Source: a virus
Lineage: Duplodnaviria > Heunggongvirae > Uroviricota > Caudoviricetes
Virus record (IMG/VR): IMGVR_UViG_3300045988_123188
DNA length: 29,910 nucleotides
Strand: one strand, 5' to 3'
The translations under genes and the position numbers were made by a program. This document shows positions 13,211 to 29,910 of the stretch, one piece after another. The notes under the pieces were generated by a model, which saw only the letters and a list, made by a program, of their open reading frames with translations, was not told the DNA's origin and searched no databases. Each line of letters begins with the position of its first letter. Position 1 is the first letter of the stretch.

Positions 13211-13215
13211 AGCTT

Positions 13216-13443: not shown

Positions 13444-13456
13444 AACGCCTCTCTAA

Positions 13457-14442: not shown

Positions 14443-14457
14443 TTAGACTCTTTTACT

Positions 14458-14478
14458 ACCCCGTCCAGAAGGGCGGGG
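14458..14478. terminator. GC-rich hairpin CCCCGTCC-AGAA-GGGCGGGG between converging units (weak T tract)
   Basis: Perfect stem seen in sequence immediately after the antitoxin stop. Confidence 0.35.
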
Positions 14479-14484
14479 TGTGCA

Positions 14485-14688: not shown

Positions 14689-14770
14689 TAGATCTCATAC
14701 CATTTAACTAAAAAAGGTTATTTATACTGTATAAAATTACAGGTTAAAACTCAAACTTGACGGTCAATTT

Positions 14771-15013
14771 TCAATGAATTAACTGCGTAAACTGCTGTGT
14801 GGCCCGATACTTATGCTCTCTCCCTATGCCACGATCAACTTTCTCAAGAAGTCCAGTACGGACAGCAGAATCAAGCATCCTTTTAACAATTCTGCTATTT
14901 AACCCAACATCAAAAGCAAGCATCGAAGCGAAAACAAACCCATCACCACCATCAGAAAAGCTCTTTTCGCTCCGTTTTCGTATCATTTCAAAAAGCAATG
15001 CCTTTTTATCCAT
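14771..15013 (-). CDS. hypothetical small protein (80 aa), possible winged-helix DNA-binding fold
   Basis: ATG with GGAGGG SD. Confidence 0.45.
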   Translation of the reverse strand: MDKKALLFEMIRKRSEKSFSDGGDGFVFASMLAFDVGLNSRIVKRMLDSAVRTGLLEKVDRGIGREHKYRATQQFTQLIH

Positions 15014-15031
15014 TTATCCCTCCGTGACCAG

Positions 15032-15358
15032 TCACGCTTTGAGCGCAAGTTTCAGCCTCGTGGTTGTAAGGTGGCATGACCCTTCGCCATCAAAAATGCA
15101 TTCTGAAACAGGCATTTTTTGACCACATCGCGGGCAAGTAGTAGATAGCTGCTTCTGCAGCTCCTTATAGTTTTTCCTGATCAGCAAACCAATGACTTCG
15201 TTCTCCGAATATGGAACTCGCCCTGGTCTACGCAATACACAAATTTCCCCCAACATACGTAACTCGTCAGGTTCTAGAATCCACTCCCGTCTTGATGTGC
15301 CTTCCTTCTTCAACCGTTCCCTGCGTCTCCTTTGCCGTTCTGCCGGTGTCAGCGCCAT
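15032..15358 (-). CDS. hypothetical protein (108 aa), Arg-rich N-terminus, CPRCG motif
   Basis: ATG with AGGAGG SD. Confidence 0.5.
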   Translation of the reverse strand: MALTPAERQRRRRERLKKEGTSRREWILEPDELRMLGEICVLRRPGRVPYSENEVIGLLIRKNYKELQKQLSTTCPRCGQKMPVSECIFDGEGSCHLTTTRLKLALKA

Positions 15359-15373
15359 AAATCCTCCTGAAAA

Positions 15374-15826
15374 TTACTTAACCCAATTAACTACACCGCC
15401 AGCGACCACAACCGCCCTTTCACAGTCACGCTCATATCTCAAAGGTTGAAATACACCATCAATAAAATATTTATCTCCACCAAACGCTGCAGGAAGTGAA
15501 ACAGAAAACTGAACATGACCATCCGGAGTTACCGGAGAGTTGCCAGCCTCATACGCCACACGCATCCAGTGCAGAAGCGTTTCAGTGCTCACACAGCCGC
15601 AATCAACATCAATTTTGCCGTGCTGCCGTTCCAGCCATTGCTCAAAAGTTAACTTGTAAGTTTGGCTTACAGGTTCTGCACTATCAGCTTCGCGCCGCTT
15701 CTGTAGCTCTGCTGCCATCGCTCTCACGACTTCAACTGGTGCCCTTGCAGCAAACTCTATGTTGGTGATCAGCTCATTAAGATATTGCTCGCCTGGATAC
15801 TGTTTCTTATCGGTTATAGTGGTCAT
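15374..15826 (-). CDS. hypothetical protein (150 aa)
   Basis: Start at internal ATG (MTTITDKKQYPGEQY...) with AAGGAGAGTGAT SD. Confidence 0.5.
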   Translation of the reverse strand: MTTITDKKQYPGEQYLNELITNIEFAARAPVEVVRAMAAELQKRREADSAEPVSQTYKLTFEQWLERQHGKIDVDCGCVSTETLLHWMRVAYEAGNSPVTPDGHVQFSVSLPAAFGGDKYFIDGVFQPLRYERDCERAVVVAGGVVNWVK

Positions 15827-15827
15827 A

Positions 15828-16214
15828 TCACTCTCCTTTTCCCTGAAGCATAGCAGCGCGGCAGGCATTCCAGCCTCTCACCTCTGCAATAGCGGCAACA
15901 GCATCAACCGCGTACATGCTAAGAGGATTAGGCATTGGTTTTTCTTCCGGTACTACTGGAACGGGTGGAGCGGCGTAGACCTCAATAATTCCATTATCAA
16001 TAGGCCATTCTCCATCCTTGAGGTAGTCACTTGTGCCGTCAACTTGCTGTTCTGCAATGTGGAATGCACCTATTGGTTTTGCTTCCAGCGATGCCAGAGC
16101 AATTCGTGCCAGTTCTTCCGCTTCTTCTGCTGGCAGTACAACGTTGCTACCAGGTCCGTATGTTTCGCGCCACTGTTTGATTGTCAGTAGTCGCTCTTTG
16201 GTAATAGTGGTCAT
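15828..16214 (-). CDS. hypothetical protein (128 aa)
   Basis: MTTITKERLLTIKQW...; ATG with AGGAG SD; 1-nt spacing to the downstream gene. Confidence 0.5.
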   Translation of the reverse strand: MTTITKERLLTIKQWRETYGPGSNVVLPAEEAEELARIALASLEAKPIGAFHIAEQQVDGTSDYLKDGEWPIDNGIIEVYAAPPVPVVPEEKPMPNPLSMYAVDAVAAIAEVRGWNACRAAMLQGKGE

Positions 16215-16224
16215 GTGTTACTCC

Positions 16225-16488
16225 TTAACCCGCAGTGCTTTCAACTGATGAGGGGAACAAAATCCTTTCATCAAATCCGGCATTCATATCATGGACAGCA
16301 ACACACCAATCCATCGACGAACGATTATCAAGAGCCTCCATGATTTCATCCATGCGGCGCAGGTCATACAGGTAAATGCTTTTATCGCCAATGGTGTAAA
16401 AACCAATTTTTTTCGGTGATGGGCAGCGATCAAGAACGTCCTGTAATTCGTTCAACCATGCCCGTTCTTTTTTTGTTAAAGTTGCCAT
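16225..16488 (-). CDS. hypothetical small protein (87 aa)
   Basis: Start at internal ATG (MATLTKKERAW...) preceded by the same AAGGAGAGTGAT SD block as the gene at 15826. Confidence 0.5.
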   Translation of the reverse strand: MATLTKKERAWLNELQDVLDRCPSPKKIGFYTIGDKSIYLYDLRRMDEIMEALDNRSSMDWCVAVHDMNAGFDERILFPSSVESTAG

Positions 16489-16489
16489 A

Positions 16490-17038
16490 TCACTCTCCTT
16501 TGATGCGAATGCCTGTTGCAATGCTGTTTATGATGCTGTCAGTGCATGGGGTAGAAAGCTGGGCATCTCCAGCAATTTTCATGACCTCAACATCTGCATA
16601 TCGAATACCGAGGTGTATCAGACCGGCTATGCCTGACTTAAGCCGAGCATTTTCCATAAATAGAACTTTTGCCCGCTGTTTTTCTGCTTCAAGCTCAACG
16701 CGCAGCTTCCCTACCGTTAGCGCAATATCCTCGTTCTCCTTGTCGCGGGATTTTATGTATTGCTGGTTTCTTTCCCGTTCATCCAGTAGTGCCAGCGCAA
16801 CATTTGGATTAAAGGCAGCAATAAATTCAGCGTTTGCGTAAGCCTGAGCATCTGTTTCAACCAGGCAGTTAACATGACATTCTGCAATCACGCCACCGGG
16901 TTCTCCTTTCCATTTTTGGCAAACAAAAACTCCTGTTAAATTGCCGTGCTGGTTAACAGATGTATGCCCTACGATGTAGCTCCCTTTCGTTGCCTTTTCT
17001 GCCGCATCACGCAGTGCCTGATAATTAATTTCGCTCAC
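16490..17038 (-). CDS. Ead/Ea22-like family protein
   Basis: Contains AEFIAAFNPNVALALLDE plus a coiled-coil, the Ea22-like signature by recall; GTG start with GGAGG SD. Confidence 0.55.
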   Translation of the reverse strand: MSEINYQALRDAAEKATKGSYIVGHTSVNQHGNLTGVFVCQKWKGEPGGVIAECHVNCLVETDAQAYANAEFIAAFNPNVALALLDERERNQQYIKSRDKENEDIALTVGKLRVELEAEKQRAKVLFMENARLKSGIAGLIHLGIRYADVEVMKIAGDAQLSTPCTDSIINSIATGIRIKGE

Positions 17039-17259
17039 TCTTCATCCTCCAAGTCGGCAACGGCGTCCATCACATCAGAACCGCGAATAACCTCAAAAGC
17101 ACGGCAGGCCATTTGAAATACCAGTTGCTCTTGCGGGTGAGGAGACTCCCAATATTTGAAGCCTGGGCGATGCGTGTACCCCATCATTGAATAAAAATCA
17201 CCAGCAAGCTTAATCGCGGCATCGACAAGCTCTCTGTTAGTCATTCTTTTTCCGCTCAC
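17035..17259 (-). CDS. hypothetical small protein (74 aa)
   Basis: GTG start with AGGAGG SD; 4-nt overlap with the downstream gene. Confidence 0.45.
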   Translation of the reverse strand: MSGKRMTNRELVDAAIKLAGDFYSMMGYTHRPGFKYWESPHPQEQLVFQMACRAFEVIRGSDVMDAVADLEDEE

Positions 17260-17551
17260 TGGCTGCCTCCTTTACTGGGCTTTCGAATGTATCAAACTCA
17301 AACAACTTAACTACGTCATCAAACAGGACATAATCGCCATCAGAATCTTCAGTCATGTCAGCGCCACAATCCTGACCGAACGAGTCACAACCATCCATAT
17401 CAAGCTCGTATCGCTTGAGTTTTGCGATATTTGATAAATTCAGCGCCAGTACAGCAAGGTCATAAACCTCATCAGCGGTATACCCGGCACCATGCCCATA
17501 CATTTCAATACGGGATATGATTTCTTCTACACGTTGTTTTGTGATCGTCAT
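17237..17551 (-). CDS. hypothetical acidic protein (104 aa)
   Basis: ATG confirmed; GGAAGGTGAG SD. Confidence 0.45.
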   Translation of the reverse strand: MTITKQRVEEIISRIEMYGHGAGYTADEVYDLAVLALNLSNIAKLKRYELDMDGCDSFGQDCGADMTEDSDGDYVLFDDVVKLFEFDTFESPVKEAASERKKND

Positions 17552-18180
17552 TTTTGCTCACCTTCCTGTTCTTCCAGAAAAATACGCATAGCCTCAAGCA
17601 TCTCTTCGGTATCATACGGAGACAGCTTGTCACGCAGGATGTGTTCAATGCTGTTAATGAACTTGCGGATTGCTTTGCGTTCAATTTCAGCCAGGAAAGC
17701 GTCGGTGGCTGGGGTTTCCGTGAAGTTGTCCTCCCAACCGTAGTACTCCTGACGACAGAAGTTATTAAATTCCTTCTCCGACTGTTTAAGCCCCGCATTC
17801 TCCGCCGCCAGCGCCGTGCGATTACCCTCCAGCTCTGCAATGCGCTGTTTTGCGGCATCCAGTTCAATCGACAATTTTTCCAACTGCTCTTTATGCTTCT
17901 TATATTCCTGATATGCGTGCCAAGACTGACCTTTGCGCACACTATCAGTGATATCAGCAACCTGCTCTGGTGTTAGCGTGGTCAGTGGCTGTGATGGAAA
18001 AATCAGCACTTTCCCGGAATCCCAATCAAAACCAGCGTGAATTGACTGAACCTCAACTGAGGGTGTTGAACCAATGCTGCCAGGCGAATGAATAACGATT
18101 GTTACATCCATATCGCGACGATGGCTGTGGTTGTTGGACAAAATACGATTCACCAACTCAGAAAATTTGGAAAATTTCAT
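17548..18180 (-). CDS. hypothetical protein (210 aa) with central coiled-coil, possibly Ea22-like
   Basis: ATG confirmed; coiled-coil segment LEKLSIELDAAKQRIAELEGNRTALAAENAGLKQSEKE. Confidence 0.45.
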   Translation of the reverse strand: MKFSKFSELVNRILSNNHSHRRDMDVTIVIHSPGSIGSTPSVEVQSIHAGFDWDSGKVLIFPSQPLTTLTPEQVADITDSVRKGQSWHAYQEYKKHKEQLEKLSIELDAAKQRIAELEGNRTALAAENAGLKQSEKEFNNFCRQEYYGWEDNFTETPATDAFLAEIERKAIRKFINSIEHILRDKLSPYDTEEMLEAMRIFLEEQEGEQK

Positions 18181-18467
18181 GCTGATTCCCCTTTCTCTGC
18201 TCTCTCCTGTCGGAACATCACTATCATCAGGTCGCCTTTTGTCGCTATCTTGGCTGTTGTGCCTGGCTCAATGCGGCTAAGTTCAAATGCGTCATAGAAC
18301 GCCTCTAACACTTTCTGGCGTCTTTCCTGTTTGCGGTGCTTTCCCCACTGCTTTAGAAAAACAGAGGCCGCCCACTTCCCCGCACTGAACATGATGTAAA
18401 ACCAACCGAGAAGTGCCAGACCGATATTTAGGGCCGTATCGATCGTTATCGTGGTGTCGATATTCAC
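18177..18467 (-). CDS. small membrane protein (96 aa)
   Basis: GTG start with AGGAGG SD; hydrophobic segment ALNIGLALLGWFYIMFSAGKWAASVFL. Confidence 0.45.
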   Translation of the reverse strand: MNIDTTITIDTALNIGLALLGWFYIMFSAGKWAASVFLKQWGKHRKQERRQKVLEAFYDAFELSRIEPGTTAKIATKGDLMIVMFRQERAEKGESA

Positions 18468-18886
18468 TACGCCACCTCCTGTAAATTTCCCTGATAAAAA
18501 GCCAGCACACGCTGCATAACTTCACTTTTCCGGCAATCGTGACAAATCATGTTCAAGCGCCTGTCGTAACGACGTATTTCTCCGTCAGGTAATGACCAGA
18601 TAAGGTCTGGATCAACCACTACCGATTTCTTCGGCTTTACTCTTGATAGTTTTTTACGGGCGTTTTGCCAGTCCTTGCGTGCTTGTGCAGACAGAAATAT
18701 CCCGGAGCCAGAGATATACAAATCACCACTGGCAGCAAGCTCTCTTGATAAACGACTAACAGCACACCGGCTAATACCAGTTTCATCCGCAAGTTGCCTA
18801 ACCGTTCCTCGTCCATTCAGGCGCACGAGTTCCACAATTTGTTTATTCAGTTCTTCCCTCTGTTCTGGTGTAAAAGCCTTTGCCAT
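18467..18886 (-). CDS. HTH-containing putative DNA-binding protein (139 aa)
   Basis: HTH-like segment TVRQLADETGISRCAVSRLSREL; AGGAG SD; start overlaps the upstream gene stop. Confidence 0.5.
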   Translation of the reverse strand: MAKAFTPEQREELNKQIVELVRLNGRGTVRQLADETGISRCAVSRLSRELAASGDLYISGSGIFLSAQARKDWQNARKKLSRVKPKKSVVVDPDLIWSLPDGEIRRYDRRLNMICHDCRKSEVMQRVLAFYQGNLQEVA

Positions 18887-19485
18887 TACGATTCTCCTTG
18901 CCCTTTTACAAGACGGGAGAAAATTGCGGATACATATTTAGCCTGATGAATAGCATCAGCCAAGGCATTGTGTCGTTCGCCATCAAATGGCATATCTTTT
19001 TTAGGATTAAAACCAATAAACTGACCAAGATTAACGATTGTTCGAACATCCTGATCATTAAAATATTCCCACGGACAGGCTAAGCCAACGCGCTCATAAG
19101 CACCGCGTAAAATTACATTATCGAACGTTGCTCCATTTCCCCATACTTTCAACTTTTTTAAATTACATGCATGGCAAGTAATAAAGTGTGATAATTCAAA
19201 AAGTGCATCCTTAATATCAAGGGCATCATTAGTACAAATAGCGGCTCTGGCTTCCTTGCTCTGTTTCAACCACCATAAAATGGTATCACCATCGGCGATA
19301 CCTCCATTCAACATCGAGCTTCTGAGATTCACTGGCACATAAAAAGTAGGACCTAATTCCTCACTTTCTGGAGAAAAAAACACTGCCCCGATAGAAACAA
19401 TTGGAGCACATGTGTTAGTACCCATTGTTTCAAGATCAATCATTACATCAGACCGTTTCCTGTCGTAAATAATCTGATTAGTCAC
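18886..19485 (-). CDS. DEDDh-type 3'-5' exonuclease (DnaQ/RNase T-like)
   Basis: Exo I motif MIDLETMG, Exo II FDNVIL, Exo III ERHNALADA; GTG start with GAGGAG SD. Confidence 0.7.
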   Translation of the reverse strand: MTNQIIYDRKRSDVMIDLETMGTNTCAPIVSIGAVFFSPESEELGPTFYVPVNLRSSMLNGGIADGDTILWWLKQSKEARAAICTNDALDIKDALFELSHFITCHACNLKKLKVWGNGATFDNVILRGAYERVGLACPWEYFNDQDVRTIVNLGQFIGFNPKKDMPFDGERHNALADAIHQAKYVSAIFSRLVKGQGES

Positions 19486-19508
19486 GAATAATTCTCCTCA
19501 ACGTTTAT

Positions 19509-19712
19509 CTATACCCAAATTTTCTGTTGATATGTTCTGGATGGTTTTGGCGTTCTTTCTGATTCAGGTAAATGAACATAAACGCAATATCCATCACCTA
19601 AAAAATCAGAACGAACAACCAGAACTTTCTTACCACGCCGCCGATAAGTATCTGAAAGACGCTCTGCTTCATCATGCGTCATCGGCCCCTGCTTAAATGG
19701 CGTTATTTTCAT
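19509..19712 (-). CDS. hypothetical small protein (67 aa)
   Basis: Start at internal ATG (MKITPFKQGPMTHDEAERL...); the track ORF N-terminal extension MRPWSH is translation of the palindrome. Confidence 0.4.
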   Translation of the reverse strand: MKITPFKQGPMTHDEAERLSDTYRRRGKKVLVVRSDFLGDGYCVYVHLPESERTPKPSRTYQQKIWV

Positions 19713-19938
19713 TTTCTTGTGCGACCACGGTCGCACCCTCTCTGATTTCCAAGTAACGCTTAATCCAAAGATTTTCTATATGCTTATTACCTGGCTGATT
19801 TGATAAATACCAATCGGCAATTACAGACTGCTTATTACTATCTGGTCGTGTCCTGTAACCACAAGTTGGACACCAGATAACATATTCATTTCTTACCCCC
19901 GAATACCTTAATTCTGGCTTCGACGGTTTCCTGAACAT
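19693..19938 (-). CDS. hypothetical zinc-ribbon-like small protein (81 aa, CLCK...CPTCG)
   Basis: Start at internal ATG (MFRKPSKPELRY...). Confidence 0.4.
   Translation of the reverse strand: MFRKPSKPELRYSGVRNEYVIWCPTCGYRTRPDSNKQSVIADWYLSNQPGNKHIENLWIKRYLEIREGATVVAQENENNAI
19719..19736. promoter_or_regulatory. sopC-like palindrome GTGCGACCACGGTCGCAC overlapping the RBS region of the gene at 19712 and the 3' end of the upstream gene
   Basis: Fourth copy. Confidence 0.6.
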
Positions 19939-19945
19939 AACTTGT

Positions 19946-20656
19946 TTACAAAGGCAGAATGGCACTTCCTGCCCGATGGCGTTTGATGATTTCACTGCGC
20001 TTCTCCGCCGCATTTAATAATGCAGTTCGATTTAAGCTCAGACATCGCGACTTAATTAAAAGCCAGCGTTCTTTATAATCTTGTCTCCAGCTATCAATAG
20101 ATATATTCAGTAGAAAACTCAGATGCCTGTCCTGTTCTCTCTCATCAACTGCCTCAGCACACGTAAGTTCTGATTTAACCTGCTGTGCCGCGTAATAAAT
20201 CAATTTCCGCATGGCTTTTTTCGTGGAGGCCTTCATTTTTTTAAAGCCGCCCCCCGAATGAGCAACCAGAAAATCAAGCCATAACCACTGACAAACAATC
20301 ACATCATTGTTGTAATCAGGCTTGCATCCGTAGCAATAATAAAGCCAGGCTGATTCCTCGTTATTCAACTGACCAATAGCCCTGCGCCAGCTGGCGCTCT
20401 GAAAATCAATATCAGTGAGCAACATTGATGATTGTTTAAATGTTTTCCCCTGGTGGAATCTAACCGGCTCAGCAGGAACGGACACTTCGTATGAGTTATC
20501 ATCCCCCACACTGATTGACCGGACTGGTTTATTGTTAAACCGTCCTGACCTACCGAGACGCATCTGCTCAAGCTGGACCTCCAGAATGCCACGCTGGCGA
20601 TAATGAACATCAGCCAATGCCGTAGAGACGCAGCTGCGTATATACTCAAGCTCCAC
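19946..20656 (-). CDS. hypothetical 236-aa protein first downstream of cro; possible Q-like late antiterminator by position only
   Basis: Track ORF; the Q assignment rests only on my recollection that N15 immB is cB-cro-Q and on the PR'-like leader at ~13.1 kb; no sequence motif recognised. Confidence 0.3.
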   Translation of the reverse strand: MELEYIRSCVSTALADVHYRQRGILEVQLEQMRLGRSGRFNNKPVRSISVGDDNSYEVSVPAEPVRFHQGKTFKQSSMLLTDIDFQSASWRRAIGQLNNEESAWLYYCYGCKPDYNNDVIVCQWLWLDFLVAHSGGGFKKMKASTKKAMRKLIYYAAQQVKSELTCAEAVDEREQDRHLSFLLNISIDSWRQDYKERWLLIKSRCLSLNRTALLNAAEKRSEIIKRHRAGSAILPL

Positions 20657-20867
20657 GCTTACGACTCTCCTTAATCGACTGCTTTACCCGCCGAGTTGTA
20701 AAGTCACTCTTCAGCTTATAAGCAGTACGAACTTCAATATCGCTTTGCCGCAATGAAGGAATCTCTCCAGCGGTTAACCATTGGTAAACAGCTCCGGGTG
20801 TTACACCTACCCCTGCCGCTGCTTTTTCTACACTGCCAAAGTGGCGAATAAGTTCTTCTGGTTTCAT
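20646..20867 (-). CDS. Cro-like HTH repressor
   Basis: Internal ATG (MKPEELIRHFGSVEKAAAGVGVTPGAVYQWLTAGEIP...), 73 aa, HTH; divergent from the repressor gene across an operator-bearing AT-rich region. Confidence 0.65.
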   Translation of the reverse strand: MKPEELIRHFGSVEKAAAGVGVTPGAVYQWLTAGEIPSLRQSDIEVRTAYKLKSDFTTRRVKQSIKESRKRGA

Positions 20868-20897
20868 GTTGTTATTATAAACAATAAACAACAATTA

Positions 20898-20936
20898 AAG
20901 CCAGCTATAATAAATAAATTTTATAGCCAGCTATAA
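20898..20936. promoter_or_regulatory. operator region: palindrome TTATAGC-CA-GCTATAA (~20921-20936) plus half-site copy AGCCAGCTATAA (~20898-20912) between cro and repressor genes
   Basis: Inverted 7-bp half-sites seen directly; position is that of OR/PR/PRM in lambdoid switches. Confidence 0.5.
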
Positions 20937-20958
20937 GAAGATCATTTATGATTACAGT

Positions 20959-21555
20959 ATGAAAACACGAGGCGAACGACTGAAAGCACGCCGTTTAGAG
21001 ATGAAGCTGACGTTGCGAGAAGTTGCTGAGGCTGTCGATATCTCTATAGCAGGCGTCCAAAACTTAGAACGTGGCGACGTAATGCCGTCACTGGAGATAG
21101 GTATTGCCCTGGCTAAGTGCTTACGCAAGCCAGTGCATTGGGTGCTATATGGGACAGAATATGACCCTGACCGCATTCCTGTTATTGGCACAACTGAAAG
21201 TGGGCCGGATGAAGAGTGGAAGCCGGGACAGGTTCCAAATACTGAGCGATTCCTGCCATTCATCAGCCAGCGCAATACTGTGTATGCGTTAACTATCAGC
21301 AATCTTACGCAGGGAAACTATCAGCCAGGCGATTTTCTCCTGGTCGATTCTGCGCTGGAACTGGTCCCCGGCGAGGATGTTCTGGTTCGTGATACTGCAG
21401 GAAATATCACTATCCAGCGCCTGGCCCGTTTTGATGATGAAAATTACTATCTGGATGGAACAAACTCACAACGCGCCATCTTCAGGAAAAGCGATCTTGA
21501 ATTTGTTCACCAAATAGTCGGAACGATCAAATCATTCATGGTTGAGGGTAGATGA
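20959..21555 (+). CDS. prophage repressor, CI/CB-like (N-terminal XRE HTH plus C-terminal S24/LexA-like fold)
   Basis: HTH LTLREVAEAVDISIAGVQNLERG; C-terminal region GDFLLVDSALELVPGEDVLVRD resembles the lambda CI C-terminal domain; ATG has no SD, suggesting a leaderless mRNA as for lambda cI from PRM. Confidence 0.7.
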   Translation: MKTRGERLKARRLEMKLTLREVAEAVDISIAGVQNLERGDVMPSLEIGIALAKCLRKPVHWVLYGTEYDPDRIPVIGTTESGPDEEWKPGQVPNTERFLPFISQRNTVYALTISNLTQGNYQPGDFLLVDSALELVPGEDVLVRDTAGNITIQRLARFDDENYYLDGTNSQRAIFRKSDLEFVHQIVGTIKSFMVEGR

Positions 21556-21656
21556 CTTAATACGGGGTTTATTGTTTGCTGTAAATCTGGTTTAATGCAG
21601 GGCATATGTTCTGTGGGTTGACTCAGGTTACAGCAGCAGAAAAAAGACGAAAAAAA

Positions 21657-21686
21657 ACCCGAGTCGGCAAACTCGGGTCCTTTTCA
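21657..21686. terminator. bidirectional rho-independent terminator ACCCGAGT-CGGCAA-ACTCGGGT flanked by A8 and TTTT
   Basis: Perfect 8-bp stem with T/A tracts on both sides; lies between the repressor gene and repA. Confidence 0.55.
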
Positions 21687-21800
21687 GGAAGCAGCCACAA
21701 CAACGCGACGGATTCCGTCAATTCAAGATGTGTTTATTGTGGCTGCTCCTGCGGATTTTTTCAACCCGAAAAAACATAATTCGCATGGAATGGCTAAAAA

Positions 21801-24800
21801 ATGACATTAAACGATTTCTATGCGGATCGCTTTGGCAGCGATCCGTTCTCGCTAATTGAAGCAGCACGGGATGAACTAACCGAGCTGGCACAGATGGCTG
21901 GTATCAACTGGCCTGCCTGTTCCGACAACATCCAACTCAACCCTCGCGGGGGGGTTGAGCGTTACTCTTCATACAATAAAACATCTCCAGAAGCTCTCGA
22001 AAAGAGCCTGAAAGGACGCGTAGAAATTTACTCCCGGCTGGAACACAGCAAAGGGATTGATTACCCGTTCATTAACTTCGTCCATAAAGGCAGCGATGCT
22101 GGCTCATGGAGCGGTTTCTCCTTCCTGTTTTCTGAATATCGCCGTGAGCAACAACGGAATAATGCGACCGTGGTCGCACAACCGGAAGAAGAACGGGAAA
22201 GAATAGAACGTCAGGCCGAAGCACGTCGTCGCCGTGAAGAACAAAAACGAATTAATGACCTGAAAAACAACCAAATGGACCATGAACGTTTGCTGGGATG
22301 GCTGGCATTCCACAGCGCGTGGGAACATGCTCCGGCTGAAGACGGCTCATGGCCATATGCGATTAAAAAAGGTATTCGTGACGTTTTTAGTTCATGTGAT
22401 GTGCGTCGCGTGACCAGTCACGACAGTGCGAAATGGAGTCGGGGACCAACCACATATATGGCTATCCCTCTGGCTCACCTGGACGGTCGTTACGATGGTC
22501 GTATTGTGGGTTGGCAGCGAATCGACAAACAAGGTGGGAAATACCAGACCAGCGCAGTAACCAGCGGCGATTTCGTCGGTGCCTGCTTTGTTATCGGTGA
22601 GCTGAAAGGGGCGCAAAACATCGCTGTTACAGAAGGTTTTGCTACTGGTGCATCCATCTGGCTTGCCACGAAAAAAGATAAACGCTTTGACGCTGTGGTT
22701 GTCGCTGTATCCGCTAACAACATGGTTCATGTTGTGGAACAACTGGTAAACATGTACCCGGCGGTAAAAATCACCTGCGCACTGGATAATGACCGGAAAT
22801 CTGCCACAGAAGGAAAAGGGAATACCGGCCTGCGGACTGGCTATGAAATCTTATCGAAATTCAACGATGTCCGCTGCGTCTATCCAACTTTTGAAGACGA
22901 TCCGCAAATGGAGTGCAGTGACTTCAACGACCTGCACAAACTACGTGGACTTCGTGAAACAGCACGTCAACTATTTGCAACAGCAAACCGCCTGAAAACC
23001 GGTACTGATTTGCTATCTCTGACGCTCAACCGCCTGAAGACAATTAAGCGGGATAACCGTCGTACTTTTGCCAAAGAGCTGCTGAGAGCGGTGGATATTG
23101 GCATGCTAACCTGCCCGGTTCCTAACAGTCCGTCAGATTTATTTAACATGTTCTGCATCGTTCTGCGTGAAATGGGACTGGAAAATATCTATCGCGCTAC
23201 GGTAAAAGACCACATTGCCCGTCGCCTGAATAAAAAGTGCCGTATTGCCCAGGCTCCGCGCTCTTTCAGCGAACGCATAACTGATCCCAATAAACGCCCT
23301 CAACATATCACCTATAAGCGTTTTGAAACTTCGGTAATGACCGATGATCTCCTGAAGTACGTGCAATCACTACAGGGGATAGTCATCGTCCGTGCTGGTA
23401 TGGGTTCCGGCAAATCTACTGGATTGTTACGACCGTTAATGCATAGCTCAGAACGTGGTATCTCTGTTGCTCACCGTGTCTCCCTTATTGGTGGCCTGTG
23501 GGAAATGATGACAGAAGGAAAAGGTGTAAAAGCCGATATCCTGCACTATCAGGACCCTGGCTATCAGGAAATGGCTCCATACGCCAGTAAACTGACCATC
23601 TGCATAAACTCGATTGTTAAAAACTGCTGGCAACCGTTGATGCGCCAGCACGACTATTTTGGCTTTGACGAGGCCACACAAGGGCTACGTGCCGTTCTTT
23701 CCGGTCGGGCTATGGAAAACCCAGTGGCTGTATTCAATACGCTAATTGACGCGCTGGCCAGAACGGAACAACACCCAATAATGGTGGATGCTGATGCGAA
23801 CGATCTGCTGGTTGACCTGGCTGAACTGGCTATGAAACGCCGTGAAGAACTAGGTTTACCGGCATGGCTGCAGATCCACGTAATTGAATTACCTGTTGAT
23901 GTTCGCAACCGCGAAACAGGTGAGCCAATCCGGGTTTTTTATACAGAAAAAGATCGCATCATGACCGAGGTGGTGAAAGCTGTATCGGATGGCGAAAAAA
24001 TCATGTTGGCCACCGACAGCTCCACCTTTGCAGAAGATGTGACAGCCACCCTGAGAATGCATTTTCCTGGTAAGAAATTTCTGTGTGTAAACCAGAAAAA
24101 CAAACCAGAGCCAGAAGTTGAAGCATTTACCAATCAACCGAAAAAGATGGTCAAAAAATACGACGGCCTGATTTATAGCCCGTCTATTTCATCCGGCGTG
24201 TCGATTGAGCAAAAACATTTTGACCGTCATTTCGGCATGTTCTGTGGTGAAGTTGTACCCAGCGACGCAGTGCAAATGCTACGCCGCGACCGTACAGCAA
24301 AAGAATTTATTATCGGCTTTGATAAAGCTCGTGCAAAACGTGAAACTGACCCGCAAAAAATAGAACGAGCATTCGCCCAGGCATTGCTTGCTACCGCAGG
24401 TATGAACGGTGAACTTACGGATGTCGTTTTCGATGGCGACCGTATATCAATGGGGGTGGCCAATACCGACTTTACCAGGATGAAAATTAAAGCAGCCGCA
24501 ATTGAAGCGACTGCGCGTAACGACTACGCCAGCAACATGATCTGCATCATGCACAGCGACGGTTATAAGGTATCACCGCTGGCCACCGATTATGCTGCGA
24601 ATGATATCGGTAAAGATCTGCGTAAAGAAGCGCGGGATATTGTGTGGGAACAGACACTGGATCTGCACCTCAATACAGAAACTCCACAAGAATCAGAGCG
24701 TGAAAAACTGCTAAAAAAACGCGCGCTGACGCTTGAAGAACAGGCAAAACTTGTCCGCTGGGATATTGAAAACGAACTGAAACTACCGGTTGAAGAAGGC

Positions 24801-25796
24801 ACGCTGAAATTCTATTTCGATGGTGCTCGAGACAAAGTTCGCCGCTATGAAACAATGCTTTTAGATGAGGTAACAGCTCGTCGTTACGACCGGGAAGAAG
24901 CAGCCATCAATTTTACCTACGCATACCGTCAGGCGGGACAGTGGCAATATTTTGTAGTGACCGCGATGACTCGCGAGCAGGCTGATGATGTCTTTAAAAC
25001 TAAATTCCCTGGAATAATCGATCACAAGGTAAAAGCTACTCCTACTGTTGAAGTCGGGGCGCGCGGTTTCTATGCGCTTAAATCAGCAACTCTCCGGCAG
25101 TACTTTATCGACTGCGGTATCAACCCTGAGACTATGACCGGCGAGGCGACTCAGGAGCGTCTCAAATTCGCTCGAGATAACCTCATGACAGCCGAACGCC
25201 GTGACCTGTTGAATAACGTTCTGCACATTGGTGGTTTTATGACGCCAAAAGGGAAGCCTAAAGTGCCGGAAGCGTTGTTTAAAAACATTTGCGACTCTCT
25301 TGGCCTTAAAACAGGTAAACGTCGCGGCAGAGACGGCGATAAGCGTCCAACCTTGCGTTTTGTTGAGCCTGAATCAGCGGCATTTATGCTGGATATTCTT
25401 GTTCAGCGTCAGAAAGATGGCCTAACCCTAAAAACGCGTAAAGCCGAGAAGACAGCCATCGAAATGGATCGCGATTTGGATCTCAATATATATATGGATG
25501 ATAAAACGCGATCCACAAACGAGCAGGTTCAAAACGCCCCTCATTCAGTAATTTCTGAGGCTTTGGCCGTGTTGCCAGTGGCTGTACCTGAGTCCTGGGC
25601 GATGAGTGCGCTTTCCAGTGAGGAGTTGGCCACTATGTCATCATGGTCATCAGCCAGCATAGCTATGACGTTTGCATCTCTGTACCTCACAGAGTTCATG
25701 GATCACCTTTCCAGCAATGAGCTGCGGCGGTTACGTGAATACATTACGGGGAATAGCTCATGCAGCTACGAAGAGCAGGGCGCTTTCTTTGGGTAA
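21801..25796 (+). CDS. repA: replication protein RepA, multidomain primase-helicase (N15 RepA-like)
   Basis: 1331 aa; Toprim/primase-like segment (NIAVTEGFATGASIW...TCALDNDRKSATEGKGNTG), Walker A GMGSGKST, Walker B-like FGFDEA; size and architecture match my recollection of N15 RepA (~1320 aa). Confidence 0.8.
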   Translation: MTLNDFYADRFGSDPFSLIEAARDELTELAQMAGINWPACSDNIQLNPRGGVERYSSYNKTSPEALEKSLKGRVEIYSRLEHSKGIDYPFINFVHKGSDAGSWSGFSFLFSEYRREQQRNNATVVAQPEEERERIERQAEARRRREEQKRINDLKNNQMDHERLLGWLAFHSAWEHAPAEDGSWPYAIKKGIRDVFSSCDVRRVTSHDSAKWSRGPTTYMAIPLAHLDGRYDGRIVGWQRIDKQGGKYQTSAVTSGDFVGACFVIGELKGAQNIAVTEGFATGASIWLATKKDKRFDAVVVAVSANNMVHVVEQLVNMYPAVKITCALDNDRKSATEGKGNTGLRTGYEILSKFNDVRCVYPTFEDDPQMECSDFNDLHKLRGLRETARQLFATANRLKTGTDLLSLTLNRLKTIKRDNRRTFAKELLRAVDIGMLTCPVPNSPSDLFNMFCIVLREMGLENIYRATVKDHIARRLNKKCRIAQAPRSFSERITDPNKRPQHITYKRFETSVMTDDLLKYVQSLQGIVIVRAGMGSGKSTGLLRPLMHSSERGISVAHRVSLIGGLWEMMTEGKGVKADILHYQDPGYQEMAPYASKLTICINSIVKNCWQPLMRQHDYFGFDEATQGLRAVLSGRAMENPVAVFNTLIDALARTEQHPIMVDADANDLLVDLAELAMKRREELGLPAWLQIHVIELPVDVRNRETGEPIRVFYTEKDRIMTEVVKAVSDGEKIMLATDSSTFAEDVTATLRMHFPGKKFLCVNQKNKPEPEVEAFTNQPKKMVKKYDGLIYSPSISSGVSIEQKHFDRHFGMFCGEVVPSDAVQMLRRDRTAKEFIIGFDKARAKRETDPQKIERAFAQALLATAGMNGELTDVVFDGDRISMGVANTDFTRMKIKAAAIEATARNDYASNMICIMHSDGYKVSPLATDYAANDIGKDLRKEARDIVWEQTLDLHLNTETPQESEREKLLKKRALTLEEQAKLVRWDIENELKLPVEEGTLKFYFDGARDKVRRYETMLLDEVTARRYDREEAAINFTYAYRQAGQWQYFVVTAMTREQADDVFKTKFPGIIDHKVKATPTVEVGARGFYALKSATLRQYFIDCGINPETMTGEATQERLKFARDNLMTAERRDLLNNVLHIGGFMTPKGKPKVPEALFKNICDSLGLKTGKRRGRDGDKRPTLRFVEPESAAFMLDILVQRQKDGLTLKTRKAEKTAIEMDRDLDLNIYMDDKTRSTNEQVQNAPHSVISEALAVLPVAVPESWAMSALSSEELATMSSWSSASIAMTFASLYLTEFMDHLSSNELRRLREYITGNSSCSYEEQGAFFG
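22163..22178. promoter_or_regulatory. sopC-like palindrome TGCGACCGTGGTCGCA embedded in repA coding sequence (encodes NATVVAQ)
   Basis: Fifth copy; the only one inside a gene. Confidence 0.55.
25466..25514. other. candidate replication origin inside the 3' part of repA: inverted repeats GGATCGCG/CGCGATCC flanking (AT)5, with three GATC sites
   Basis: Seen in sequence; N15 ori is reported to lie within the 3' region of repA (recall). Confidence 0.35.
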
Positions 25797-25854
25797 TCAG
25801 TGGATATTATCGTATGTGGAAATCGTGATTTTTCGGTGAACGGGGAGTAAGAAT

Positions 25855-26184
25855 ATGTCGACGACTGCATTTTTAGACAAACTTGATTACCGTCAGCTGC
25901 AGTTCTGCCGGGATGAATGCGATCGACGCATTAAGGCTATTCAGGAAGAAGAGAAGAAAGTAGCTTGGGCGATCACTGATGGTGGGATTAATTTGGGTTG
26001 GTTCAGGACAGAAAACTACGTGAAAGCGGCTGAGCGTTTAGCTTCTTTAGCTTCTGAATTGTGGGAGGAGGAGCCAGATAAGGAACACCCATCTACCCGT
26101 TTGGGGCTTAATCTGGCAATTGAGGGGCATCATTTACCATTATCAGAGTATAACGCTTTGTTTGCTGATGGTGAGTGGGGTTAA
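25855..26184 (+). CDS. hypothetical protein (109 aa)
   Basis: ATG with GGGGAG SD directly downstream of repA. Confidence 0.45.
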   Translation: MSTTAFLDKLDYRQLQFCRDECDRRIKAIQEEEKKVAWAITDGGINLGWFRTENYVKAAERLASLASELWEEEPDKEHPSTRLGLNLAIEGHHLPLSEYNALFADGEWG

Positions 26185-26186
26185 AA

Positions 26187-26582
26187 ATGGCTGTTCAATC
26201 ATACAAATACGAATCCCCTTTGGATAAGGGATACATTCGTATCAAGTTAAGTCGTTCTCAGCATAAGGCTATTTTTAAGGTAAGGAAAATTCGCATATTG
26301 GATGCGTATGCGTATTACTACAACGGTGAAAATGTTGTTGTTGAACACTTTATTGCACGATGGTTTGTAGCTCTGATTTTTGTCCCTCTCCTGTTAATTG
26401 GTACTTTTGTGGATGGTTTTCCTAGTACATGGCGGGAGATAAAGAAAGGCCTATTCCCGCGTAAGTACGGCAGATTTTCGCAAGATAGCTGGCGAGTTAT
26501 ACCTGGTAAACATTCTGTAGATGAGCAACCGATTGTTGATTTCTGGTTGAATCGTATGGCTGATGCTAAAAAAGTTGATTGA
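26187..26582 (+). CDS. hypothetical single-pass membrane protein (~132 aa)
   Basis: ATG 2 nt after the upstream stop; TM segment WFVALIFVPLLLIGTFV. Confidence 0.45.
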   Translation: MAVQSYKYESPLDKGYIRIKLSRSQHKAIFKVRKIRILDAYAYYYNGENVVVEHFIARWFVALIFVPLLLIGTFVDGFPSTWREIKKGLFPRKYGRFSQDSWRVIPGKHSVDEQPIVDFWLNRMADAKKVD

Positions 26583-26609
26583 ATTGTGATGACTGTTACA
26601 GGAGATAAA

Positions 26610-26897
26610 GTGAAGAGTTTTATTTTTGTTTTATGTTTTGCCTTTTCTGCTGCGGTTTATGCCCAGGAAGATAGCATTTCTGTTATTAACTCATCAGCGG
26701 ACCTTGCATGTAAAAATAATCCCGATGCTGCATCAAAAGAGTCATGCAAAGAGCTGCTCCTTTCGACGGCTGCTTTTGCTTCTGAAAATGCAAAATTTTA
26801 TTCAGCCTTTTGTCGCGGCTATGTTAAGGACGAAGATAAAGAAAAATGTGATGATGCCGGTAAGTTAGTTAGGTATTTCCAATCTCTTAATCAATAA
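26610..26897 (+). CDS. small secreted cysteine-rich protein (~95 aa)
   Basis: GTG start 5 nt after AGGAG; signal peptide KSFIFVLCFAFSAAVYA then QEDS; 6 Cys in the mature part. Confidence 0.5.
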   Translation: MKSFIFVLCFAFSAAVYAQEDSISVINSSADLACKNNPDAASKESCKELLLSTAAFASENAKFYSAFCRGYVKDEDKEKCDDAGKLVRYFQSLNQ

Positions 26898-26999
26898 TGG
26901 CCTTTGATTAACGATCAACTTCTGATCACTCGTTCAAGCAAACTATAAAAACACCTGTCCCCGTGACTGGTCACGGGGTAAAATGTCTTTGCAAATTAT

Positions 27000-27110
27000 T
27001 GACGTGCGCGTCGTTTTGACGGTAAAGTTTACTCCGCTACGGTAAATCCCGTAGCCGGGCGTAGGAACCCGAGTAAATGAAGCGCACAACACGCGCCAGC
27101 GTGTTTTTTT
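27000..27110 (+). ncRNA. candidate small antisense regulatory RNA (c4/CA-like) of the anti-repressor locus, ending at an intrinsic terminator
   Basis: Hairpin GCTACGG-TAAATC-CCGTAGC (~27036-27055), terminator AACACGC-GCCA-GCGTGTT + T7 (~27088-27110); 7-nt blocks CGGTAAA and GTAGGAA are complementary to TTTACCG and TTCCTAC ~130 bp downstream in the icd leader (~27181-27200). Confidence 0.3.
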
Positions 27111-27273
27111 GTGTGTAAAATCTGCGTACACCAAATTTATGGTGGCTCAGATGGGGCAGCTTTTAGCTGGCCGGTTTCTTCGTTTACCGGTATTCCTACC
27201 CCCGTCTGGGCTACCGCCATATAGAGCGTAGGAACTCTGGTGGTAGCACGACCAATTAAACGGAGTGCATACC

Positions 27274-27438
27274 ATGTTCAAATTCAAATTTGCGGCAATC
27301 GTTCGCACAGACAAAAAGTCACACATCCATCATCTTTCCACCATCGCGTCATCTGAACGGGAAGCTCGTCGCCAGTTCGCCAGCCGGTTTGTCCTGGTAT
27401 TGTCTGCCCGTATTCCGGTGCGCGAGGTGGCTGCATGA
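27274..27438 (+). CDS. Icd-like small protein (54 aa), putative cell-division inhibitor
   Basis: MFKFKFAAIVRTDKKSHIHHLSTIASSEREARRQFASRFVLVLSARIPVREVAA; SD GGAG 8 nt upstream; ATGA overlap with the next gene; not in the ORF track (<60 aa); family assignment from recall of Icd-like proteins. Confidence 0.4.
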   Translation: MFKFKFAAIVRTDKKSHIHHLSTIASSEREARRQFASRFVLVLSARIPVREVAA

Positions 27439-27668
27439 ATCAGGTAAAAATGAACACTGTTGGCCTGCTGGAATCGTTGGATGAACGTCTGGCTCAGGTC
27501 TATGCGCTCGTATCATCAGCCCATCGGACAATCTCCAGTTGTGAGGCGTCGATTTATCTCTCAGAAGCAGGGAAACTCCTTCAAATTGCGTGTGAGCTAA
27601 CACACGAAGCACAGGGTTATTCAGCATCGCTCTCGTCGCAATTGCTGCACGATAAGGAGGCTGAATGA
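27435..27668 (+). CDS. hypothetical protein (77 aa), AntA-position gene of the anti-repressor operon
   Basis: Track ORF; translationally coupled on both sides. Confidence 0.4.
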   Translation: MNQVKMNTVGLLESLDERLAQVYALVSSAHRTISSCEASIYLSEAGKLLQIACELTHEAQGYSASLSSQLLHDKEAE

Positions 27669-27829
27669 GCGCGTTAGCAGTCTTTTCCTTTCAGGAAGAG
27701 CATCAGGTTCGTGTAGTGATGATTAACGGCGAACCGTGGTTTGTTGCATCTGATGTGTGTATGGCGGCGGGTATTGATTCTACGGCCATCAGAAAGTTGG
27801 ATGAGGACGAAAAGGGGCAGGCGAGGTAG
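27665..27829 (+). pseudogene. truncated Bro-N/AntA-type antirepressor N-terminal domain (54 codons)
   Basis: MSALAVFSFQEEHQVRVVMINGEPWFVASDVCMAAGIDSTAIRKLDEDEKGQAR resembles Bro-N domains but stops after ~54 aa, whereas Bro-N proteins are usually over 100 aa. Confidence 0.4.
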
Positions 27830-27839
27830 ACCACACAAC

Positions 27840-27865
27840 AAGGCACCGATAATTCGGTGCCTTTA
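27840..27865. terminator. hairpin AAGGCACCG-ATAATT-CGGTGCCTT between converging ant operon and telN
   Basis: Perfect 9-bp stem seen in sequence; T-rich flank is modest. Confidence 0.4.
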
Positions 27866-27874
27866 CCGTATGCT

Positions 27875-29788
27875 TTATCCGAAATATGTCAGCCATGCTA
27901 ACTGCATTGCTGATATAGGGCTGTTTGCACTGCCGGACCAAGCATAATTCTGGCCATTATAATGAAACTCAACAACGTATGAGCCATCACCAATATTTCT
28001 CACAGGCTTAAATACCGGCTTAGATACAGGTGAAGAAGGCGCGGGCGGTTGCTGTTCTTCTACGCTCTCTTCCTCTTCCTCTTCCTCTTCCTCTTCCTCT
28101 TCCTCTATCTCAATTTCGTCGTCATCCAGATCGTCATCCTCTGATAATTCATCCGTCTGTTCAGGTATTGCTTCCAGCTCTTCTTCGTCAGGCATAACGA
28201 TTTCTGGAGAATCTATTTTCAGCTGCCATTGTCCATTTTCGCCAACAAATTGCCCCAGAGCATCAGCAGCAAATTCCAGGTATCGACTAATCATTGTAGG
28301 GCTAAATTTGAATGCTCTTAGAGTGCTGTTCGTGATTTTTATAGAGGGGTCATGCTCTACCAGCTGCTTAACTGTGTTATGCAGACGAACCCCGGCATCT
28401 CCTCTGGCGAATCCTGGCATTTCGTCATCAAGCTGCTGCAATGCTTCCAGCCTGGTATTTTCGTTTCCAGTATTTGGCCTCCATGTCTTTGAGAAGTTGG
28501 CCAGCTTGAATTGCTTATAGTGTAATTGAGTGTTTTCATCGTCATGGCCTAAAATTTCCATAAAGAAAACATCCTCATCTACGTTTTTCCAACGAGGATC
28601 TACGCGGAAAAACATTTCATACGCAATACGGGCATAAATAGCACGACTATCTTTATAAACACGGCGGTCATCTTTGAAAAATGATTTAACCCACGGGTTA
28701 AAAGCCTTTGCTAATATGGCATTAATCCGTCCGTTTTCAGAGCGTGTGTCGTTATCTCCATAACCTTTAACGACATCATCAAAATCAGATGCTGCTGGGC
28801 ATGAGCGAAGTACATTTATTAAATAAACAAATGTTTTTGCTTCGCATAATGTATATATTTTTCTGGTTATATCATCAGAAGTTCTTTTTTTTGCTTGGCC
28901 TAAAAAATCAACGGTATACTTACCAGAAACAGTAAATGTACCTTGATACATAATCTCAATCATTCGTCTTCCTGACAATGCAGCAAGTGCAAATGCCAAA
29001 GGAGCCATACCTGAACGAGTGTTTAGATTATTTAATGTAGCAGGGCTATTTATAATATCGTAAATAGCTTGCATATATTTAGGGTAATCAATGACCACCA
29101 CGTTACGTTTCTTATTGTGCAGAACGTCCGCCCATCGTTGCTGGATAGATGCGCGTTCGGCAGGGCTTAGTTGAAGATGATAGAGAATCTCATGGTTAAC
29201 TTTTAGCTGATTCAACTCCTCAAGTAAGGCAGATCCTTGCTGTAGTAATTTATATAAATAATCGCGCTTATCTTTCCAGTTATCGCTAGTTAAATCAGAT
29301 ATGGCGAATTGCCACTCTTTATATTTATTTGATAATTTTAATAACTTATTATGACTTTTGTTATCACCAATTCTGATATTAGATAAATCTTCTGATAAAG
29401 GGAGAATTAATTTTAATTTTGCCTGTAAAGCTGACATTCTCTGGCGAATATCGGCAGCAGGTAGAGAAAGCCATGACAATAGCTCCTCATTATATAAAGG
29501 ATACTTTTCAGATAGGCGATGTATATTTTTTTCAAAGCTATGATGAAGTTTATCATCAAACCGTTTTCTGGCCCTGCTCATATAGGCATTGAAGGTGTTG
29601 GCTGTAATTCTTTTTTCTAATCCTTTCCCCCTAAACTTTCGCTTATCATTAAATAATGCATTTTTAAATTTTAATGCAACAGCCTTTATTTTTTTTGTTT
29701 TTTCCCCTTGAGGACGGTCAGAGTTATCTATTGACTCAACATCGCTAACAAGTGAGTTTATTAATTCACCGATTTTTACTTTGCTCAT
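27875..29788 (-). CDS. telN: protelomerase TelN (telomere resolvase)
   Basis: 637 aa; MSKVKIGELINSLV...KRITANTFNAYMSRARKRFDDKLHHSF..., YLYKLLQQGSALLEELNQLKVNHEILYHLQLSPAERASIQQRWADVL, NTRSGMAPLAFALAALSGRRMIEIM, RINAILAKAFNPWVKSF...RVYKDSRAIYARIAYEMFF (catalytic Tyr region) match N15 TelN as recalled; SD GGAGAGGAAA. Confidence 0.9.
   Translation of the reverse strand: MSKVKIGELINSLVSDVESIDNSDRPQGEKTKKIKAVALKFKNALFNDKRKFRGKGLEKRITANTFNAYMSRARKRFDDKLHHSFEKNIHRLSEKYPLYNEELLSWLSLPAADIRQRMSALQAKLKLILPLSEDLSNIRIGDNKSHNKLLKLSNKYKEWQFAISDLTSDNWKDKRDYLYKLLQQGSALLEELNQLKVNHEILYHLQLSPAERASIQQRWADVLHNKKRNVVVIDYPKYMQAIYDIINSPATLNNLNTRSGMAPLAFALAALSGRRMIEIMYQGTFTVSGKYTVDFLGQAKKRTSDDITRKIYTLCEAKTFVYLINVLRSCPAASDFDDVVKGYGDNDTRSENGRINAILAKAFNPWVKSFFKDDRRVYKDSRAIYARIAYEMFFRVDPRWKNVDEDVFFMEILGHDDENTQLHYKQFKLANFSKTWRPNTGNENTRLEALQQLDDEMPGFARGDAGVRLHNTVKQLVEHDPSIKITNSTLRAFKFSPTMISRYLEFAADALGQFVGENGQWQLKIDSPEIVMPDEEELEAIPEQTDELSEDDDLDDDEIEIEEEEEEEEEEEEESVEEQQPPAPSSPVSKPVFKPVRNIGDGSYVVEFHYNGQNYAWSGSANSPISAMQLAWLTYFG
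28067..28102. repeat. perfect hexanucleotide microsatellite (CTCTTC)6 inside telN, encoding a poly-Glu run
   Basis: Six tandem perfect units on the plus strand, equal to (GAAGAG)6 on the coding strand, giving EIEEEEEEEEEEEEESVEE. Confidence 0.85.
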
Positions 29789-29799
29789 CTTTCCTCTCC

Positions 29800-29835
29800 T
29801 GATTATCAGCTCTGATTATCGTAACACAATTTGAG
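29800..29835. promoter_or_regulatory. direct repeats TGATTATC x2 and TATCAGC...ACACAATT, resembling the arm of the N15 telRL/tos site; putative TelN-binding/telN promoter region
   Basis: CCTGATTATCAGCTCTGATTATCGTAACACAATTTGAG; the N15 telRL arm is recalled as TATCAGCACACAATTG. Confidence 0.3.
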
Positions 29836-29910
29836 AATAAGATAACTAATAACGCGTTAACTTAGCTTCAAACTAACAGAACATAATGACGGATAATAAA
29901 CAAAAACACA

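Follow-up and report, generated by a model that had tools for sequence, protein, structure and literature searches.

N15 (NC_001901) is the prototype of the telomere phages, and the hairpin form of its prophage, its replication and the position of a centromere within repA have been summarised previously (PMC2847241). Its own head genes are homologues of those of lambda (NC_001416), an integrative phage, and stand in the same order. The Klebsiella phages phiKO2 and NAR688 share the telomere-phage organisation (PMC12042878), and a preprint describes N15-like phage-plasmids of Escherichia and Shigella in which a structural cassette with considerable identity to lambda accompanies a plasmid region (repA, sopAB and telN) resembling that of phiKO2 and NAR688 (10.1101/2025.09.12.675607, 2025). 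The virus record IMGVR_UViG_3300045988_123188, a stretch of 29,910 nucleotides (here called the window), comes, with a probability of roughly 0.93, from a temperate Escherichia coli siphophage of the N15 group, a linear phage-plasmid also called a “telomere phage,” of which it covers about two-thirds and in which the N15-type backbone is combined with a lambda-type head module. A sequence-only reading had proposed this pairing of a linear plasmid-prophage backbone with a lambda-type head and packaging module, and the comparisons below support it. Forty-seven open reading frames (ORFs) of the window were compared by tblastn with lambda, N15 and two close relatives, and Pfam scans of 40 ORFs took in everything outside the lambda-matched W-to-FII genes. 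Gene identities, cos, operators, RNA elements and repeated sites (Table 1) were read directly from the window.

The alignment of the head and packaging region with lambda spans 8,071 columns at 96.8% nucleotide (nt) identity and ends at lambda base 1, and the same head genes reach 69-77% nt against N15. The proteins from FII to Nu1 (106-7865, minus strand) are 89-100% identical in amino acids (aa) to lambda and 43-88% to N15, which bears out the earlier statement that the virion proteins are near-identical to those of lambda. The module comprises a Nu1/A terminase, the gene order Nu1-A-W-B-C/Nu3-D-E-FI-FII and a cos site that reads, on the minus strand, ACGGGTCCTTTCCGGCGATCCGGGCCGTTACG, GGGCGGCGACCT and CGCGGGTTTTCGC in succession. 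The 12-nt end is exactly that of lambda, with cosQ-like and cosB-like flanks, whereas the cohesive end of N15 differs from lambda's (record note and end sequences). The virion module is the lambda version (~97% nt) and not the N15 version (~76% nt), and the lambda-identical block has its left edge at cos. The cosN site lies ~2.4 kb downstream of the lysis cassette (10481-11776). An internal cos had been read as the prophage arrangement; cos is indeed internal, with the lysis genes upstream, but this does not by itself identify the prophage form, since an internal cos is seen in every assembly that is circularised or concatemeric. The diagnostic feature would be a tel site split between the two ends, which lies outside the window.

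The assignment of the backbone to the N15 class had been based on TelN and a RepA of ~1330 aa, and both proteins align with their N15 counterparts and pass the domain cut-offs. TelN exceeds the Pfam cut-offs by a wide margin for four protelomerase domains (TelK_N, muzzle, ResT-TelK_cat and stirrup) and matches the TelK crystal structure 2v6e (E=8.6e-295). Its ResT/TelK catalytic domain includes the active-site Arg, Lys and Tyr, with R275, K300 and the HY nucleophile motif conserved between it and N15 TelN. RepA is a large primase/helicase-type protein and the sole replication gene seen in the window, with a Toprim-like region at about residues 274-383, a P-loop at 532-540 and a CyRepA1 domain at 525-1034 (NCBIfam CyRepA1, 260 bits, cut-off 200). 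The P-loop, AGMGSGKST, is conserved with N15 RepA; it was found by a looser Walker A pattern after a strict regular expression had missed it. No sequence relative of RepA was present in the PDB. The CB-like switch that had been predicted is likewise of the N15 type: cB is divergent from cro and Q, one operator palindrome (TTATAGCCAGCTATAA, 20921-20936) is identical to part of an annotated N15 CB operator, and a second (TTAAAGCCAGCTATAA) lies at 20895-20910.

TelN, RepA, CB, Cro and Q have no lambda match by tblastn. Conversely, when lambda Int, Xis, O, P, cI, cII, N, Q, S, R, Exo, Bet, Gam and Rz were searched in the window by tblastn (Int, Xis, O and P at E<=0.01), Rz only was returned, and no integrase family appeared among the 40 ORFs scanned with Pfam. 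The window therefore holds neither the integrase and excisionase nor the O/P-type replication genes of an integrative lambdoid phage, in agreement with what had been said of int/xis and O/P. Lambda is shared in the head and packaging genes and in cosN/cosB; its int/xis, red, N, cI/cII, O/P, nin and Q genes are absent from the window, and its lifestyle is integrative as opposed to extrachromosomal and linear. The N15-type backbone had been placed at 20646-29910, and the genes named for it are found there; N15-like DNA, however, is detectable by nucleotide alignment in patches from ~10128 to 29841, and not only from 20646 on. Nearly all genes from position 1 to ~20,900 lie on the minus strand, with the exception of a HigB/HTH (helix-turn-helix) toxin-antitoxin pair, which is plus-strand like cB, repA and the anti-immunity operon; telN (27875-29788) returns to the minus strand. 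GC content is 54-60% across positions 1-7000 and drops to 40-50% elsewhere, a fall that fits two origins.

The window ends 122 bp upstream of telN, ~58 bp short of telO and ~69 bp short of the hairpin tip. Because it stops short of telO, the palindrome (core CCATTATACGCGCGTATAATGG) has no match in the window with up to 3 mismatches allowed. The window end corresponds to base 81 of the record of phage PhiR46_1, which starts with an annotated telL, and the palindrome begins ~58 bp past this point in contigs 99.98-99.99% identical to the window, in PhiR46_1 and in YDC107_1. The behaviour of such near-identical elements could be observed directly. At least 23 public draft contigs encode a TelN identical to that of the window, and in all eight of those listed telN lies 169-268 bp from the contig end; two of the eight (L008 and L012) match the window at 99.98-99.99% over 12 kb. 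Contigs L007 and L008 run through CCCATTATACGCG directly into CGTATAATGGG, and in the YDC107_1 record a perfect palindrome of 343 bp is centred on telO, with the same dinucleotide at its centre as this fold-back. N15 telRL has the same 22-bp core as these relatives of the window. Hairpin telomeres, and equally head-to-head replication intermediates, give rise to fold-back or truncated contig ends when assembled. The evidence for a linear-plasmid prophage is good at the level of the lineage and extends to the copy in the window through near-identity.

Certain points weigh against this assignment. The tel site, sopAB and the tail genes all lie outside the window, and the completeness and topology of this copy are taken from its relatives; hairpin ends are not provable from sequence; and the placement of ori within repA is a prediction from N15. 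In addition, a 54-aa Bro-N remnant occupies the place where N15 and YDC107_1 have a full-length gene, and anti-immunity control may differ. Some of these features would also suit a defective or cryptic linear plasmid that has kept the N15-type maintenance genes and lost the ability to form infectious particles. The tail genes, sopAB and telomeres are unseen, the Bro-N gene of the anti-repressor operon is truncated, and one relative carries a frameshifted J gene. This alternative is nonetheless unlikely: the head, packaging, lysis and regulatory ORFs of the window are all intact and 89-100% identical to lambda or (lysis and regulatory genes) to PhiR46_1, except for an exchanged Rz (58%); the deposited phage PhiR46_1 has the same truncated Bro-N arrangement; and one contig with 1 mismatch in 12,036 bp measures 47.6 kb, the full phage size.

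The distribution of the backbone bears on the two remaining alternatives. Among 5,426 complete Escherichia coli genomes, 16 carry at least 80% of positions 20646-29910 at 96-98.7% identity, in every case on a separate record of 27-75 kb and never on the chromosome; chromosomal matches across the 5,426 genomes cover ~1% of the backbone at most, at the C4/icd region. PLSDB contains at least 23 plasmids with the backbone at 94-98.7% over at least 80% of its length, from E. coli, Shigella sonnei, E. fergusonii and E. albertii. Three complete relatives (PhiR46_1, pCAVP367-48 and pEC21Z151-46K) were compared with lambda over their whole length, and all three hold, between N15-like arms, a lambda-like block of ~18 kb that runs from cos into gene J at 96.3-96.9%. 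All three carry sopAB, and none has an annotated integrase. An assembly chimera, formed across late-region sequence common to a chromosomal lambdoid prophage and an N15-like plasmid, is conceivable as a repeat-induced misjoin, given that the heads, R and Rz are 93-97% identical to common integrative lambdoid prophages of E. coli. The same joins, however, recur in independent assemblies (an isolated phage genome, long-read complete plasmids and draft contigs of many strains), and with the whole cos-to-J block lying between N15-like arms in the three complete relatives this explanation has next to no likelihood. It is hardly more credible that the window belongs to an integrated lambdoid prophage with telN and repA as cargo: an integrase could lie beyond the FII end of the 29.9 kb visible, but O/P, cI, N and int are without match, the complete relatives (97-98% identity) have sopAB and no annotated integrase, no chromosomal place covers more than ~1% of the backbone, and contigs end at telN.

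The telomere-phage assignment was also to be judged by two outcomes named beforehand as contrary to it, TelN and RepA without BLAST support and integration by an integrase; BLAST supports both proteins, and no integrase-borne integration was found. The suggestion of a recent mosaic fares less well, and stands only relative to N15. Because the same cos-to-J block is present in all three complete relatives, the hybrid is an established trait of the lineage and did not arise recently in this genome alone. Sequences, names and a description of such hybrids are already on record, so that the finding is correct but known. A literature search on PhiR46_1/PV340565 found no paper, and the YDC107 genome paper lists its contig as “phage” only.

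PhiR46_1 (PV340565.1, 46,290 bp, deposited as linear with telL and telR annotated) is collinear with the window at 97-98% nt over 1-15675 and 17828-29910, covering 97% of positions 1-15000 at 97.4% and 86% of positions 15001-29910 at 97.1%. It shares the lambda-type genes from Nu1 to FII, the cos-adjacent accessory genes, telN, repA, cB, cro, Q and the truncated Bro-N, but lacks a 2.15-kb block (15675-17828), and the counterpart of ORF 25855-26184 is only 78% identical. YDC107_1 (CP025712.1, placed in Ravinvirus by NCBI taxonomy) has the same hybrid architecture and is 96-99% nt identical over most of the window; it differs in its full-length Bro-N and in some missing small ORFs, and its record is a fold-back assembly with an inverted duplication through telL. 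N15 shows the same order of telN, immA, repA, cB, cro, Q, toxin-antitoxin pair, late promoter, methylase, lysis genes, cos and heads, with backbone proteins 67-87% identical, one identical CB operator and syntenic dispersed centromere-like sites. By contrast, its backbone is only ~73% identical in nt, its head genes match at 75-77% where those of lambda reach 96.8%, and its accessory genes between Q and gp46 are different. The Klebsiella phages phiKO2 and NAR688 resemble the window at ~74-77% nt in the repA, cB and Q region; they belong to a different host genus and gave no megablast match outside window positions 19680-27557.

Exchange with lambdoid phages extends beyond the head genes. The integrative lambdoid phage PhiR49_1 matches the window at 96.7% nt over 61-8107 (from the heads to just past cos), at 95% over 10480-10918 (Rz) and at 93% over 11004-11497 (R), with further patches beyond cos at 8182-8411 (89%) and 9975-10080 (91%). 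Cos was considered as the sole left junction of lambdoid DNA and rejected, an integrative lambdoid phage sharing R, Rz and these small patches as well. R and Rz are of lambdoid origin, and since Rz is 95% identical in nt to PhiR49_1 but only 58% in aa to the Rz of PhiR46_1 and YDC107_1, it is a separate small cassette exchange. The Rz swap and the ea22 block (Table 1) suggest that several small exchanges with lambdoid prophages resident in the same host were added to the large block common to the lineage. Because the lambda block starts at cosN, R and Rz are separately lambdoid, and this copy has swapped its Rz and gained the ea22 block, the lineage may, tentatively and at somewhat less than even odds, serve as an active bridge over which integrative lambdoid prophages and linear plasmid-prophages of E. 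coli trade late genes, with repeated and ongoing recombination, possibly at terminase-cut cos ends, in place of one old event. The lambdoid/N15-like patchwork of late genes is a clean case of modular exchange between phages of different lysogenic lifestyles.

By homology with N15, each biochemical step of the life cycle can be proposed. Virion DNA with lambda-type 12-nt cohesive ends would circularise at cos, and TelN would cut the telRL palindrome beside telN and seal both ends as covalently closed hairpins. The product would be a linear plasmid prophage with cos internal and telN at one end. RepA would then prime and start bidirectional replication from inside repA, TelN would resolve the replicated telomeres, and SopAB, encoded outside the window, would segregate the plasmid via dispersed TGCGACCACGGTCGCA sites. 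CB is predicted to repress cro/Q and repA, and the C4-type antisense RNA to hold down the Icd/anti-repressor operon, which could itself override CB repression. On induction, Q would antiterminate the late operon through the methylase, holin, lysozyme and Rz and across cos into Nu1, A and the heads.

The lineage of Escherichia/Shigella phage-plasmids to which the window belongs is known and moderately common, with a frequency of ~0.3% among complete E. coli genomes, and the finding changes little. Its practical value is in annotation hygiene, as databases often label such elements “plasmid” or “circular,” and the position of telN at the contig end explains assemblies that are truncated or folded back at the hairpin. 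In the YDC107_1 record, which has a duplicated telN-repA arm, the palindrome region occupies 36400-37085. Several deposited “complete” records of the lineage are fold-back assemblies; others (61-91 kb) are 1.3-2 times unit length with two matching places, and one relative is labelled circular. These fold-back, over-length and circular-labelled records look like database artefacts of hairpin telomeres.

Table 1. Features of the 29,910-nt window, with strand and supporting matches (percentages in aa unless marked nt).
Feature	Position	Strand	Evidence
Head and packaging module	1-8054	-	single high-scoring segment pair to lambda 8070-1, 96.8% nt
FII	106-459	-	
FI	471-896	-	
E	899-1948	-	
D	1977-2315	-	
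C/Nu3	2319-3638	-	
B	3619-5220	-	
W	5217-5423	-	
A	5420-7345	-	Pfam GpA_ATPase, GpA_nuclease
Nu1	7320-7865	-	Pfam Phage_Nu1; followed by cosB up to cosN
cosN, 12-nt cohesive end GGGCGGCGACCT	8043-8054	-	read directly against lambda and N15 ends
cosQ-like ACGGGTCCTTTCC	~8077-8089	-	~30 nt upstream of cosN on the minus strand
Accessory late ORF	8413-8907	-	phrog_3054, no Pfam match
Accessory late ORF	8987-10108 (likely true start near 9847)	-	phrog_2571, no Pfam match
Centromere-like 16-mer TGCGACCACGGTCGCA, five identical copies	9872-9887, 10092-10107, 13194-13209, 19720-19735, 22163-22178 (inside repA)		
DUF4406 protein, N15 gp57 homologue	10128-10439	-	84% to N15; Pfam DUF4406
Rz	10481-10954	-	Pfam Phage_lysis
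Lysozyme R	11007-11507	-	Pfam Phage_lysozyme
Holin	11504-11776	-	Pfam holin families
DNA N6/N4 methyltransferase, N15 gp52 homologue	11872-12993	-	84% to N15; Pfam N6_N4_Mtase
N15-type late promoter region	13060-13215	-	centromere-like site, -35 TTGGCA, terminator GCCGCCTTTATGGCGGTTTTTTT
Gp49/HigB-like toxin, N15 gp49 homologue	13799-14155	+	Pfam Gp49
HTH antitoxin, N15 gp48 homologue	14155-14442	+	Pfam HTH_3
Accessory block with Ead/Ea22-like gene (16490-17038)	15675-17828	-	Pfam Ead_Ea22
DEDDh 3'-5' exonuclease (Rv2179c-like)	18886-19485	-	Pfam, 229 bits
Q-type late antiterminator	19946-20656	-	Pfam Phage_antiter_Q, 282 bits; 67% to N15 gp40
Cro lytic repressor	20646-20894	-	Pfam P22_Cro, 78.9 bits; 87% to N15 gp39
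cro-cB operator region, N15-type palindromes	20895-20958		aligned to N15 CB operators 34729-34793
CB prophage repressor	20959-21555	+	Pfam HTH_3 and weak S24-like C-terminal region; 78% to N15 gp38
cB-repA stem-loop terminator	21651-21684	+	kept in N15, whose record annotates stem-loop 33979-34013
RepA, 1331 aa, multidomain replication protein	21801-25796	+	75% to N15 gp37
Three small ORFs downstream of repA, in place of N15 gp33-gp36	25855-26897	+	PHROGs unknown-function only
isrK-like leader RNA	27036-27109	+	Rfam 62.5 bits, above gathering score
C4 antisense RNA	27135-27221	+	Rfam 73.6 bits, gathering score 45
Icd-like ORF	27274-27438	+	PGAP names in relatives
gp31-like anti-repressor family ORF	27435-27668	+	phrog_10889; 66% to N15 gp31
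Truncated Bro-N remnant, 54 aa (N15 gene 30 homologue)	27665-27829	+	
TelN protelomerase (telomere resolvase), 637 aa	27875-29788	-	77% to N15 gp29
telN upstream region toward telL	29789-29910		

Between repA and telN lies the anti-immunity operon. A C4-type RNA is followed by Icd-like and gp31-like ORFs, and the third gene is truncated; this arrangement is the layout of N15 immA. The truncation of Bro-N is common to PhiR46_1, and the gene is full length in YDC107_1 and N15. An isrK-like RNA stands directly upstream of the C4 RNA, at the head of an Icd/anti-repressor operon in a telomere phage. Among the small ORFs that follow repA, 25855-26184 is 63% identical in aa to N15 gp35.

The near-palindromic 16-mer occurs in five copies against 0.14 expected by chance, and its positions are syntenic with four similar sites of N15 (inside repA, after Q, before the late promoter and near the right end). 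Dispersed sites of this type in N15 are presumably targets of SopB, and by analogy the copies in the window are probably SopB-binding centromeres. The sopAB genes themselves are found in PhiR46_1, pCAVP367-48 and pEC21Z151-46K, and the window holds the dispersed sites only. It has one copy more than N15, and two of its copies stand 220 bp apart upstream of the gene at 8987-9847.

In the late region, the promoter, terminator and leader upstream of the methylase align with N15 41115-41345, where -35 and -10 boxes and a terminator are annotated, and this region is the presumed target of Q antitermination. The toxin-antitoxin pair is 85-86% identical in aa to N15 gp49/gp48 and is likely a plasmid-addiction module; it lies opposite in orientation within the late/early accessory region. 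The two accessory late ORFs have a GC content of ~42%, are present in PhiR46_1 and are absent from lambda and N15 by tblastn, and neither gave a Pfam or PADLOC match. Their place, downstream of the lysis cassette and ahead of cos, is moron-like and corresponds to the bor region of lambda. PADLOC detected no defence systems among the unknown ORFs of the window, PHROGs assigned these ORFs to unknown-function families only, and no colicin or telocin turned up in the Pfam and PHROGs scans of the window ORFs, telocin sequences not having been searched directly. The 2.15-kb block with the Ead/Ea22-like gene is absent from both PhiR46_1 and YDC107_1 (a gap in the blastn map). It contains about four further ORFs without Pfam or PADLOC match, and DNA resembling it is found in Stx phages and in one phage record of ~108 kb.

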